Source of the DNA: Tubiluchus corallicola
Taxonomy: Eukaryota; Animalia; Priapulida
Reading direction: 5' to 3'
DNA: 64,000 bases
Assembly (NCBI GenBank): GCA_030141605.1
Contig: JAQGDQ010000322.1
Coordinates: 124,001-188,000 of the forward strand
The notes below the pieces were generated by a model. The model was given only the letters and a program-made list of their open reading frames with translations. It was not told where the DNA came from and ran no database searches. Below are positions 4,748 through 39,700 of this stretch, piece by piece; the first letter of the stretch is position 1, and the number at the start of each line of letters is the position of its first letter. The position numbers and the translations under genes were made by a program.

Positions 4748-7700
4748 CTTCCCATCTGCTCTGCCGTACTCATAAATCTATGAGAAAAGATTGAAAGTTG
4801 TATATCATCTAGTTCCGTTCCAATCTGTTTCAGGTCACCGACACCAACTTGAATACGTATGTCGCCGTGTTCAGTAATGACCGCCTCACAAGTTGGTTCA
4901 ACTAGAATTGTGCTACATGAAATAATAAAGGTGTAAATGCAAAAACGGTTGAAGATAAGAGAATCGCTAATTATTAATTCATGATTTTCCAATTTATATT
5001 ATGTATTAAAATTCACACAAAAATGGAGAAGAGAAATAGACGACTACACATGAAGTTAAACAACTATATACCTGATTAGCAAATGGTTGGAAGCATACAG
5101 GAAAAAGTGAGTGGTTTCAAGTGCTATAATGCAGTCTAAATATTTTAGCTCATACAGTGATAAGTTAAGCAGAATGGAATGGATCGAAGTACCAGTCCTG
5201 CCGACCTTGAGTAAGTAAAGCTTGCCAGCACTGCGTTCTCACTTCCGCTGCTAAACTCGACAAAGAAAAATCTAACGAATTCAAACCATACCTGTTTTTG
5301 TCAATAATGATTGCTGGTCCCAGAATTTTGTGGCCACCCTGTAGCTGCTCTAGTAAATAAACTTTTGTCTCCAAATAGCCATCTTCAAAGTAACACTGCA
5401 CAATCTGTTAATACAAGAACATACAGTCACCCAATAACAATGCACAATCTGTTAATATAAGAGCATACAGTCACACAATAACACTGAACAATCTGTCAAT
5501 ACAAGAACACACAGTCACACAATAACACTGCACAATCTGTTAATACAAGAGCACACATTCACACAATAACACAGCACAATCTGTCAATACAAGAGCAGAC
5601 AGTCACACAATAACACTGCACAATCTGTCAATACAAGAGCACACAGTCACACAATAACACTGAACAATCTGTCAATACAAGAGCACACAGTCACACAATA
5701 ACACTGCACAATCTGTCAATACAAGAGCACACAGTCACACAATAACACTGCACAATCTATCAATACAAGAGCACACAGTCACACAATAACACTGCACAAT
5801 CTGTCAATACAAGAGCACACTGTCACACAATAACACTGCACAATCTGTCAATACAAGAGCACACAGTCACACAATAACACTGCACAATCTATCAATACAA
5901 GAGCACACAGTCACACAATAACACTGCACAATCTGTCAATACAAGAGCACACTGTCACACAATAACACAGCACAAACTGTCAATACAAGAGCACACAGTC
6001 ACACAATAACACTGCACAATCTGTTAATACAAGAGCACATTGTCACACAAATTACAAATGCATTTTAATTTTACAAATTCACGGATGAGAATAACAAATT
6101 GCAAAAAACTCTGAAACAGGCCGGGGGTTTGGGGGCCGTGTAGCCCCTATGGGTGTTCAAGGGGGCGAAGCCCCCTTGGAGCCAGCAACAAATTGCAATT
6201 TTGTGACCACAGAAAGCCTCTAAGTGGACTTAAAATATCAATTACCTTGTTTCATGCATGATTTAAAATACCCAACTATCAAGGATACATGATACCTAAT
6301 TGTCTCAAAAACGCCTAAGTACTGGCCACTCCTATGCAAAAGTATATAAAAACTGTCTGCAATTGACTCAAATAACTCCGCACAATTGATTCTATATTTT
6401 ATACATAGAGATATACACGCGGTTACACTGATGTACGTGATGTAAACAAAGTGACGGCCTGCCACCTAGCGGTCAGCTTGTGAAATAATGTACTGGATAC
6501 GTAAAAATTTTCCCAACGAATTTACGCGATTTACAATAATGGCACTACTGGTCTTCCAAAAACCGCGGAAAATTCTCATCCCTGCAAATTTATCCAAACT
6601 TTAATTAGTGCAGTATTTTAATTCGCTAAGCAGAAAATATTCACACCAAAAAAAACTTACATTGTCATGAACTTGAGCAGCTGTAGCTTCTGGTATCGTG
6701 TAGTCGACTGGTATGCCGGTTTTTCCTATCCCACGAACTCTGATATCATCGACTATGACGGGTCTGTCGGCCAGCGTGAAGCCAAATTCAGTTTTATACC
6801 TGCACAAAAGCGTGGTAGGTCTTCAATGATTTAATTAGCAACGTAATTAGAGGCTGAAGAAACTGAACACCAGATTAGGAAGACAAAACTGTGATGGTCG
6901 GTTCATGCATTTTATGTATGCAAAAGTAAATTCAATGGCATCATCAAACTACTGACAGACTAGTTTCTAAAAAATACTTTTAAAAAACGATAAAGATTAA
7001 CCCTTTCATACCCGTTGTATCCCGTGGGATACGAGAATATTTTCTGCCTTTAAAATTAATAAAATTTTAAAACTGACAGTTATTTGATCTGTTAATAGTT
7101 ATTTTGATTTAAGCCAATAACAATAGACTAAAAATGGTGATATAATGGCAAACTAGAAAACCTACATAGCATAAAAAACTGCGAAAGGTACAGTACTTTA
7201 GAGACGACTTTGTACAGATCAGCATAGCATGCATACTAAATGTCTTAAATACTTTGAAAAATTATCAGCAGTTGCAAAATGAAGCACATTTTATGCTTCC
7301 ATTGAATCCCAATGTATCCCGTGGGATACGGGCACAGGTAGAAAAAAATAATTATTATGTGTAAACAAGATAGACATACTGAACAAAAGTACCAAGCCAA
7401 AAATTTCCTTATTAAAAAAATAATTTGGGACTGAAATAGTTGAATGTTTGCTGTCAGCTTTCGACTCCAAAACTAACCCTAGCATATATCGAGCATTTTT
7501 TTGAACCCCAGGCATTTATGAACCCCTTGCATAGTCCAATCTACCCCCAGGAGACAAAATCGAGGCCTCTGCCCTACATCAAGAGATTTCATATTCAAAA
7601 ACACACAAACTTCATTGTCTATTTCATTGTTTACACTGGCGTACCTTTCACTGAAAGCCGTCAGGAAATCTCCGTGTTTGCAGGAAGAAGCCGTTGCCGG

Positions 7701-36700: not shown

Positions 36701-39700
36701 TGCTTGAGCTACTGAAGAATGAGGTGAAACCGCTGTAAAATGAAAAACAAACTGCTTGAGCTACTGAAGAATGACCTAAATGAAAAACAAACTGCATTCA
36801 GCTACTGAAGAATGAGGTGAAACCGCTGTAAAATGAAAAACAAACTGCTTGAGCTACTGAAGAATGAGGTGAAACTGCTGTAAAATGAAAAACAAACTGT
36901 CTGAGCTACTGAAGAATGAGGTGAAACCGCTGTAAAATGAAAAACAAACTGCTTGAGCTACTGAAGAATGAGGTGAAACTGCTGTAAAATGAAAAACAAA
37001 CTGCTTGAGTTACTGAAGAATGAGGAGAAACTGCTGTAAAATGAAAAACAAACTGTTTGAGCTACTGAAGAATGAGGTGAAACCACTGTAAAATGAAAAA
37101 CAAACTGCTTGAGCTACTGAAGAATGAGGTGAAACCGCTGTAAAATGAAAAACAAACTGTTTGAGCTACTGAAAAATGAGGTGAAACCGCTGTAAAATGA
37201 AAAACAAACTGCTTGAGCTACTGAAGAATGAGGCGAAACCGCTGTAAAATGAAAAACAAACTGCTTGAGCTACTGAAGAATGAGGTGAAACCGCTGTAAA
37301 ATGAAAAACAAACTGCTTGAACTACTGAAGAAAAAACATTTGCTCATTCTTCATTAGTGAATGCAGTATGTTTTTTTTGGTTTTTGTGTTGGTTTGTTTT
37401 TTTTTGGTTTGTCAAACTGCTTGAACTACTGAAGAATGATGTAAATGAAAAACATACTGCATTCAGCTAATGAAGACTGAGGTGAAACTGCTGTAAAAGG
37501 AAGAGCAAATGTTTACAACAAGTGAGACGATTTTTTTCTACAAAACTTACCCAGAGCTTGCGATGGCGTCGTTTCCAAAACCGCCAAATCCGAAACTTGG
37601 ACTAGGAAATCCGAAAAAACCGGTTGTATATCGCTGGCCTGTCAATCCCACCTGATTACGATTTTGCCGACTCCGGGACGGTCGACCTGCAAACGAACGA
37701 GTTTTAAATTACAAGCATCACAACTTTCTAAAGTTCTTTTAAGCTGCTGAAATGTGAAAACGAACGGTGTTAATATAGTAAAGAGACTTAGGAATAAAAA
37801 ACTTAAAGAACAAGGCAGTATTTTGAACAAAAGGCAGAAAACAAACGGAAACAAAAAGGTAAATATCACTGTGTAACGTTCACCTTAATCACCTTCTCCA
37901 GAAAAGGACTGCTTCCTTTTCTTCTTCCAGAGAGAGTTAAAAAGAGACTAGTTATCAAACAGTGTAAACGGTACTCTGTTAATTAAACATGCACAAAATA
38001 ACGGCCATGCAAAGCAAAATTCCCGTAAGGGAAAACTTCCTGACGTGGGTAAAACTTTCGCAAACCTCTGATCATCATAACTCTGGGGAATACCAAAAAA
38101 GAGGAGAAACACAACTCATGCAAAAACTATAAATACGATTCCTTAATGTTAAAAACTTAGGAATTACTGAACTAAAGTGTTAGCAGGAACAACCACACAC
38201 TATTGTTAATATGAAATAAGCTGTAGGCAAGAATGTATAAGACCAAAAGACATTTCCGTATCTTGTTCAGTGGCGGTTGTACCTGCGTAATAATTTACGT
38301 TACGTAATAAAATAGTTAAACCACCTTGTCCATACGGATGGAACCTATCGGCGATATCCAAGTCAAAATCTGAGCCAGCTGAAATAAGCAAACACATGCT
38401 CGTTTACAAGACGGTCGCTAACGAAGCATAAATAATTGGGAAGTGGATCACAGCTGCAGGTACCGCACAACATAGGAACACGAAGGAGATGAGAAGGCGA
38501 GACGAATGAATGACTCAACAAGACGGTCGCTAACGAAGCGTAAATAATTGGGAAGTGGATCACAGCTGCAGGTACCGCACAACATAGGAACACGAAGGAG
38601 ATGAGAAAGCGAGACGAATGAATGACTCAACAAGACAAGAAAGAACTTTAATCAGTCGGATACAGCACACAATAAACAAGCCAAAAACATTCGAAGCAAA
38701 TAAAACCAGCAGTTTATTAGTTTGGGACATTCAACTGATGAAGAATAAAACTGAACAGCACAGAGTTTGCAGTCACTGCTACCACAATGCATAACCACAT
38801 CAAAATAGTAAGCATGAGGCAAACAAAAACCCAAGAATAACAGATAAGAATACAAGTAGCATGGTAAGTAAACTTGCCTGCATCCTATCAACTAGTAACG
38901 TACGATTAACATTAATAATGCAAGAATGGAAGTGCAACAATTAATGAATGTTAAAGCAGAAGATATCAGACAAGAACAAACAAACAAGCACTAAAAGAAA
39001 GACACACAATGGCATAGCAAGTGTTTGCGGCACCCAGGGGCAAAACAACTTCTGTCACGCTAACCTTTTGATGTTGATCATTTGGTTCGTGTGTGAAACC
39101 AAAAATTGTTCACACTTTCTGCATCTGTGAGCCAAACTTTTCTTTTTTGACATGATGGGACAAAGTTTAACGAATTTTTTCTGAGAATCTCCCCGAGTTT
39201 GATTTGTGGTACTGCAGCAGAGTAACTCTTTTCTATGCATTAGTTACGCATAACACGACAGTCACTAAACATTCAGCTCCAGCATTAAAACATGCAAAGA
39301 TTATGAAAGATACAGAACACTACAGGTTTTCATAATAATACAATCAGCATTTAGAGAAACGTCACTGTTTCTTCCAAAATTATCAATCTGCTAAACCACG
39401 TGACACCCTCAACACGCCGTTAAGTAACAACATGAATCTTTTTTCTTTTGTTGAAGTTTGAAAACTTTTGTTAATGCTGCATCTGTCATTAAGAATTAAC
39501 AGTCAATGAGAACTCCAGAAGAATTTACGCCCTCTCACCATTAACCCGGGTGCGATCGCCCCTCTCGTGCCCACCTTGCTACCCCTCTGACGACACAACA
39601 AAAACAACAGAACACGACTGTTGCAACGCAATGAAACGCAAGAATGAGACAAACCGTTTCCACAAGCAAATCTAATGCATAAGAACATAGAAAAGCTGAC

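Follow-up and report, generated by a model that had tools for sequence, protein, structure and literature searches.

The window analyzed here, a 64,000-nucleotide stretch of the priapulid Tubiluchus corallicola (GenBank assembly GCA_030141605.1, contig JAQGDQ010000322.1, positions 124,001 to 188,000 of the forward strand), is AT-rich and carries two neighboring genes on its minus strand, OPLAH (5-oxoprolinase) and a DNAJB6-like gene. Three tandem arrays in these genes are built of units crossing a genuine boundary between exon and intron, at the acceptor of OPLAH exon 17, the donor of OPLAH exon 12, and the acceptor of the fifth coding exon of DNAJB6 (Table 1). This had been claimed in a preliminary description made from the sequence alone, and it is confirmed by Tandem Repeats Finder (TRF), by the gene models, and by a survey in which the junction-spanning 24-mer of each mapped splice site in the window (n = 46) was searched for near copies. 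Near copies exist in quantity for exactly three of the 46 sites, acceptor 5404 (14 copies), donor 12022 (14), and acceptor 33340 (72), while three further sites returned one chance-level match each; the boundaries of the copied junctions are fixed by homologues. The arrays are thus members of a described class, known as ‘mirage’ or junction-spanning minisatellites, to which they add three new cases.

The OPLAH model is stop-free and ends at codon 760 of about 1,300, with the remaining ~540 residues outside the window; it is identical to Mercenaria OPLAH (P0001) at 524/756 positions (69%) and matches Pfam Hydant_A_N, Hydantoinase_A, Hydant_A_C, and the start of Hydantoinase_B. Homologues 68–70% identical are spread across molluscs, hemichordates, one nemertean, and amphioxus, none of these matches being a close relative, and a tree of 37 rows, built by a quick method from 36 of 120 OPLAH matches and the window model, places the gene among invertebrate animals but gives it no supported sister. 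The junctions are gap-free in most full-length homologues (exon 12/13 in 81/83, exon 14/15 in 73/83, exon 16/17 in 57/83). A 20-nt microexon at 9266–9285 was dropped from the model, as exons 13 and 14 join in-frame and gap-free in 79/83 homologues. The DNAJB6 model is identical at 247/250 positions to Logan protein P0121, a full-length record from one 1,866-nt Logan contig. As the gene spans 12.7 kb, this contig is most likely a transcript; its source, a different individual or closely related animal, may or may not carry this array, though the repeat unit was seen in three studies.

The three arrays share a plan and differ in detail. In the 44-bp array, 15 acceptors recur at 5404+44k, and each unit holds 30 nt of intron and 14 nt of exon; in the 79-bp array (48 nt exon, 31 nt intron), 15 donors with an identical 9-mer recur at 12022-79k. 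The DNAJB6 unit comprises 18 nt of intron and 34 nt of exon. This array had been described as 52 bp repeated about 77 times, and TRF places it where stated, with 72 sites carrying the TTTTACAG acceptor and 79 anchor sites when variants are counted; its units, however, are a mixture of 52, 53, 50, and 43 nt, followed by a degenerate tail reaching ~37500. There are 33 distinct unit types, the modal one accounting for 18/49 of the 52-nt units, and the ends are diverged around a homogenized interior, the first two units having three mismatches each and most others 0–2. Each junction of the 79-bp array reads AG/GT, so that in formal terms every unit makes up a GT-AG segment of 79 nt; the 44- and 52-bp unit junctions do not read AG/GT. 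All three arrays lie in introns of 1.2–4.2 kb whose opposite end is a separate, unrepeated site. The 10-bp array reported earlier at the exon-14 donor does adjoin that donor, but no splice site is repeated in it. When degenerate local copies were searched for, a fourth junction duplicate overlooked in the preliminary description came to light, a degenerate two-copy duplicate of the first DNAJB6 coding exon.

Table 1. Genes, junctions, and repeat features of the window (positions are those of the window).
Feature	Position	Strand	Details
OPLAH (5-oxoprolinase), exons 1–18	28136-4748	-	first 760 codons, stop-free
OPLAH exon 17	5292-5404	-	acceptor adjoins 5404
44-bp acceptor array	5391-6050	-	TRF 44 bp x15.0; OPLAH exon-17 acceptor
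10-bp array	8800-9051	-	TRF 10 bp x25.2; begins 2 nt into intron 14; donor GT not repeated
79-bp donor array	10885-12072	-	TRF 79 bp x15.0; OPLAH exon-12 donor
OPLAH exon 12	12022-12134	-	donor adjoins 12022
DNAJB6-like gene	30760-43511	-	six coding exons; 12.7 kb span
DNAJB6 fifth coding exon (exon 6 in the earlier numbering)	33209-33340	-	acceptor adjoins 33340, used in P0121
52/53-bp acceptor array	33307-37500	-	includes degenerate 5' tail; TRF 33307-37332, 52 bp x78.4
Branch-point-like GTAAC	33367-33372	-	A at -29 relative to the used acceptor; putative role
DNAJB6 exon-distal acceptor	37490-37550	-	acceptor 37490, 60 nt after upstream donor 37551; score 10.8
Second copy of first DNAJB6 coding exon	43284-43373	-	includes donor GT, GTATTT in place of GTAAGT

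The 44- and 52-bp arrays were compared with public sequencing runs, in whose contigs arrays collapse and depth is not a copy number. Across the OPLAH stretch 4660–5480, contig depth in run X1 rises from 150–320 to 650–1,190 within the repeat. A contig of X4, which comes from a separate study and another individual and carries 11 differences, runs into the second 44-bp unit, and the same run has a 74-nt contig (44+30); on the stretch 31110–33460, 82-nt contigs (52+30) occur in X2, X4, and X5. The 44-bp unit is therefore present in DNA contigs of two studies (X1 and X4) and the 52-bp unit in those of three. A tandem cycle is expected to leave contigs of unit length plus 30, which argues that these two arrays are not assembly artefacts. 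The possibility of an artefact, raised in the preliminary description, is largely refuted for these two arrays by unit contigs in independent studies, and the 33 distinct unit types of the 52-bp array also speak against it; the exact copy numbers depend on the assembly alone, as no contig spans an array, yet we regard an artefactual origin as almost inconceivable. None of the 11 differences in X4 falls inside the 278 covered exon bases (P about 0.009 if independent), and OPLAH exons 17–18 consequently look constrained despite the array.

Which of the many copies is used is indicated at the DNAJB6 junction by a likely transcript-derived protein. In P0121, coding exon 4 is joined to the exon-adjacent acceptor: the shared exon start is present once, with no extra unit, and continues into the remainder of the exon. 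For OPLAH, only the exon-adjacent sites keep the reading frame open. A protein record of OPLAH from this species was not found in protein searches, which is weak evidence, and a presumed RNA run, X6, had no contig on the OPLAH stretch or the DNAJB6 exon and is uninformative on expression. Every alternative copy tested leads to a premature stop: in the 44-bp array all 14 other acceptors do so by residue 689–700, in the 79-bp array all 14 other donors by residue 547–572, and at DNAJB6 all 71 other acceptors ahead of the native stop (at 181–197 among those listed). The earlier statement that a neighboring copy shifts the frame needs amending, since every third copy of the 44- and 79-bp arrays is in-frame, though all 14 + 14 + 71 alternatives tested do meet a stop.

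These stops are what a regulatory role would predict, in which the copies are regulated decoys and nonsense-mediated decay (NMD) adjusts how much OPLAH and DNAJB6 is made, with copy number as the dial. Between the distal acceptor 37490 and a weak donor at 37458 (score 4.4), a 33-nt segment would likewise hold an in-frame stop, and some human junction arrays, 6-16 and CBS, are cited as using extra copies (PMC1557585). Stops, however, follow from any read-through into an intron; no internal copy is used in the one transcript-like protein record examined, P0121 for DNAJB6; the amphioxus Adh3 and globin mirages (PMC3087553) and human F7 (PMC1557585) are described as splicing normally; and the two host genes have no known shared need for such control. 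For the decoys proposed in the preliminary description, only the premature stops are shown, and we consider this role very improbable.

The used sites do not stand out by their strength, as judged by a matrix built from the window’s own 21–22 other sites, a small set that makes the scores rough. The donors of the 79-bp array are identical in 15/15 units and score 6.0 (5.0–11.4 as acceptors); the 44-bp copies score -1.7 to 3.4, compared with 1.2 for the exon-adjacent acceptor, and the 52-bp copies 7.4–10.8, where the used acceptor reaches 8.0. The best-scoring copy of either acceptor array is the exon-distal one, at 6020 (3.4 vs 1.2) and 37490 (10.8 vs 8.0), as expected if the original intron context was kept there; from the geometry of tandem duplication, 37490 likely represents the ancestral DNAJB6 acceptor context. 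The next donor downstream has only four DNAJB6 acceptor copies within 300 nt, which suits recognition across the exon. The 52-bp unit has no good donor, and its 4.2-kb intron contains two weak donor-like sites at the chosen threshold. Decoys are common elsewhere as well: the 22.5 kb of intron outside arrays contain 22 sites that resemble acceptors and 49 that resemble donors, with scores in a similar range, and an unrelated 26-bp array adds 18 strong donor copies. Masking of the extra sites by RNA structure was considered and rejected, as 5/5 stretches folded no better than shuffled sequences (z -0.44 to +1.42).

Comparable arrays are known in two lineages. The amphioxus mirages, described for Adh3 and the globins BflGb6 and BflGb9 (Ebner et al. 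2010, PMC3087553), are tandem boundary copies on either side of an intron, with units of 10–160 bp that mostly keep AG/GT; regular splicing is described there as undisturbed, their origin as unknown, and their end units as diverged. The Tubiluchus arrays resemble them in having boundary-spanning units on the acceptor or donor side, in retained AG/GT dinucleotides, in diverged ends, and in unit size, 44, 79, and 52/53 bp falling inside that range. They differ in occurring in another invertebrate lineage, three of them in two adjacent genes, and the DNAJB6 array, with about 75 acceptors over 4 kb, is far longer than that of BflGb6, for which 3–6 units are given (PMC3087553). Human junction-spanning arrays with a variable number of tandem repeats (VNTRs) are F7 intron 7 (37 bp x5–9), CBS intron 13, 6-16, LMNB2, and PDGF (Borensztajn et al. 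2006, PMC1557585). According to that account, F7, LMNB2, and PDGF use the first donor only, with upstream-most donor use in F7 shown experimentally. The 79-bp OPLAH array is like these VNTRs, in that its first unit spans the boundary and identical donors repeat into the intron; the human arrays listed there are all donor-side, unlike the two acceptor arrays described here. Scanning from 5' to 3' explains the donor case and predicts the wrong copy for both acceptor arrays. Under exon-centric proximity, splice sites separated by the shortest exon distance are favored when introns are long (Carranza et al. 2022, PMC9225289), and the host introns of 1.2–4.2 kb match that long-intron condition; the supporting data are human, however, and for acceptors they describe a reduced upstream preference and not a strict rule. 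The preliminary description had invoked a strict rule selecting the exon-proximal site: the exon-adjacent acceptor is indeed used in P0121, but the F7, amphioxus, and proximity precedents make a rule specific to this genome unnecessary.

Whether junctions are hit more often than chance would allow was assessed within the window, where, as noted earlier, tandem duplication is common: 59 TRF rows merge into 30 array loci that fill 14.2 kb, or 22%. Each array was collapsed to one unit, and units were placed at random within the two genes. With 17 arrays, 0.9–1.1 junction matches are expected, and the probability of three or more is 0.05–0.09; placement across the whole window gives an expectation of 1.3 (P 0.15). 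With 16 arrays, a 15-bp locus being merged into the 52-bp array, the expectation is 1.08 (P 0.085), rising to 1.34 (P 0.14) once the target no longer includes dispersed repeats; the repeat set used for this excluded one intergenic interval and three that overlap arrays, and included the miniature inverted-repeat transposable element (MITE)-like interval 31663–32452. For the remaining 13 in-gene arrays, closeness to junctions is not significant (4 at 60 nt or less vs 2.2–2.7 expected, P 0.16–0.28). Exons of untranslated regions (UTRs) were unmapped and could shift the count either way. Because the window was selected for the very pattern under test, the two- to threefold junction excess is a hint, and enrichment is not shown; the mutational process that would seed arrays at splice junctions, put forward in the preliminary description, is accordingly not established by three observed matches against 1.0–1.3 expected (P 0.05–0.15).

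The leading account is probably correct: ordinary minisatellite growth has occasionally caught a splice junction, the result has been tolerated, and the exon-adjacent copy is likely still the one used. In a repeat-rich genome, a short duplication, arising like the other arrays through slippage or unequal exchange, would by chance include a junction and then expand. A duplication across a junction would always leave one intact exon, which is why it could be tolerated. In the donor array, the first donor would win, as it does in F7; in the acceptor arrays, exon definition would favor the last acceptor, because no other copy has a donor within the length of a short exon, and local branch-site changes possibly assist it. 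Rare mis-spliced RNAs would be cleared by NMD. In the 79-bp array, a wrongly retained block of units could conceivably be excised, because each junction reads AG/GT and the block would itself be a GT-AG segment.

Several results weigh against ordinary growth with passive tolerance, and they concern both splicing and the placement of the arrays. No OPLAH transcript was seen for either junction. At DNAJB6, the stronger acceptor 37490, 60 nt from its donor, is silent in P0121; 60 nt may be too short for an intron here, given that no intron of the window is below 178 nt in length. The exon-centric rule alone would not explain the 71 silent upstream DNAJB6 copies, because in the human acceptor data the upstream preference is merely weakened (PMC9225289). 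As to placement, demanding 14 nt on each side of the junction, a rule adopted after the fact, lowers the expectation to 0.5 (P 0.01); adding two two-copy duplicates gives four observed against 1.44 expected (P 0.045); and the full set of 16 in-gene arrays is closer to junctions than random placement would give, with seven within 60 nt against 2.8–3.5 (P 0.013–0.04). A further case may exist in an 88-bp array at 58420–59127 on the plus strand, which holds eight top-scoring donors of CAG/GTAAGG type (9.9–11.0), downstream of a CpG-rich segment (57000–57500) and upstream of an open reading frame (ORF) at 62760–63368; it may be a fourth mirage, at a putative 5' UTR exon.

A tentative possibility, compatible with ordinary growth, is that acceptor choice at DNAJB6 depends on compensatory point changes besides position. 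At one position of the unit, the trinucleotide is TAG in 72/78 units and TAA in 3/78; the three exon-nearest units read TAA, TTG, and TTG, and TTG occurs in no other unit. A branch-point-like TAAC would thereby have arisen in the unit before the used acceptor, while its two nearest competitors would have lost the branch A. By scanning rules, the AGs at -22 and -19 would fall too near behind the A at -29 to be chosen. A TTG-type unit is also present in X4, from a separate study (contig 33371–33452, zero differences), and in the 44-bp array the exon-adjacent unit has likewise lost an internal AG (absent in 3/14 units). Such changes may nevertheless be incidental, as mirage array ends are described as generally escaping homogenization (PMC3087553), and the first two DNAJB6 units carry three mismatches each, against 0–2 for most. 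The TAA variant also occurs in two internal units, the two mutations were chosen after inspection (rough chance estimate 0.02–0.1), and branch-like motifs, frequent in AT-rich DNA, precede 20/23 acceptors.

The placement results, in turn, bear on the idea that small duplications arise or survive preferentially at exon edges in this lineage, enriching junction arrays about two- to threefold. The excess of three to four observed over 1.1–1.4 expected, the proximity test, and the possible further case in the 88-bp array point in this direction, as does the recurrence of mirages at several amphioxus loci (PMC3087553). The window was picked for the pattern, however, and the signal vanishes without the three named arrays (P 0.16–0.76) and weakens once dispersed repeats leave the target; we judge such a bias unlikely. 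The combination of the two appears distinctly improbable: duplications would be biased to exon edges and, once about 75 acceptors had accumulated at DNAJB6, one base change would have supplied the exon-adjacent copy with a branch point while its two nearest rivals lost theirs, so that it would outcompete every upstream acceptor, even the stronger one 60 nt from the donor.

Tandem duplication of AG/GT is also a model for intron gain (Rogers model; Hellsten et al. 2011, PMC3265369), and the preliminary description had pointed to this route. Like the model, the 79-bp unit carries AG/GT and is in principle excisable as a 79-nt intron; unlike it, the arrays lengthen existing introns, the junctions of the 44- and 52-bp units are not AG/GT, and no new intron is shown. 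As a separate observation, the end of OPLAH intron 12 (9946–9962, minus strand) resembles the end of exon 12 (12022–12043), with VYRF against VHRY across the acceptor in tblastn, and both junctions read AG/GT; this could be a trace of intron origin by duplication, or chance.

The DNAJB6 intron, in which the used acceptor is preceded by about 75 nearly identical ones, offers a natural substrate on which exon definition and branch-point quality can be tested for how far they override 5'-to-3' scanning. Were junction enrichment to prove true genome-wide, it would link exon edges to the sites of small duplications and feed the mirage route to intron gain.

Other features of the window were noted in passing. 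In OPLAH intron 5, a 26-bp array (20473–20986, minus strand) holds 18 strong donor-like sites (GAA/GTGAGT or GAA/GTGAGC, 7.1–8.0), with an acceptor-like site at 21038 (6.1) just before it, together a possible cryptic exon of ~50 nt outside the coding model; a degenerate local duplicate lies at 21115–21270. A 54-nt AG/GT-bounded stretch in DNAJB6 intron 3 (38325–38378, minus strand), absent from P0121, is a possible alternative exon. The first 4,747 nt of the window (1–4747) represent either an OPLAH intron 18 of more than 4.7 kb that hosts an ankyrin ORF, or a truncated OPLAH copy; this intronless ORF of 392 codons (668–1846, minus strand, the strand of OPLAH; Pfam Ank_2 and Ank) is possibly nested in intron 18. 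At the other end, two ORFs have no Pfam match, one of 202 codons (62760–63368, plus strand) and one of 117 codons (61777–62130, minus strand), the latter presumably resembling a retroelement tail.

Repeats of other kinds populate the introns. The MITE-like element at 31663–32452, in the last DNAJB6 intron, is high-copy and has terminal inverted repeats; its contig depth in X2 reaches up to 60,000, against about 7 alongside, and a shorter form lacks about 225 nt. Dispersed intron repeats lie at 6077–6584, 14764–15176, and 25401–25939; at 18877–19523, 24602–25203, and 41072–41595; and at 17361–17771 and 39030–39446. Two arrays with an identical 18-bp unit sit in different OPLAH introns (13245–14059 and 16264–16528), the former occupying about 815/936 nt of intron 10.

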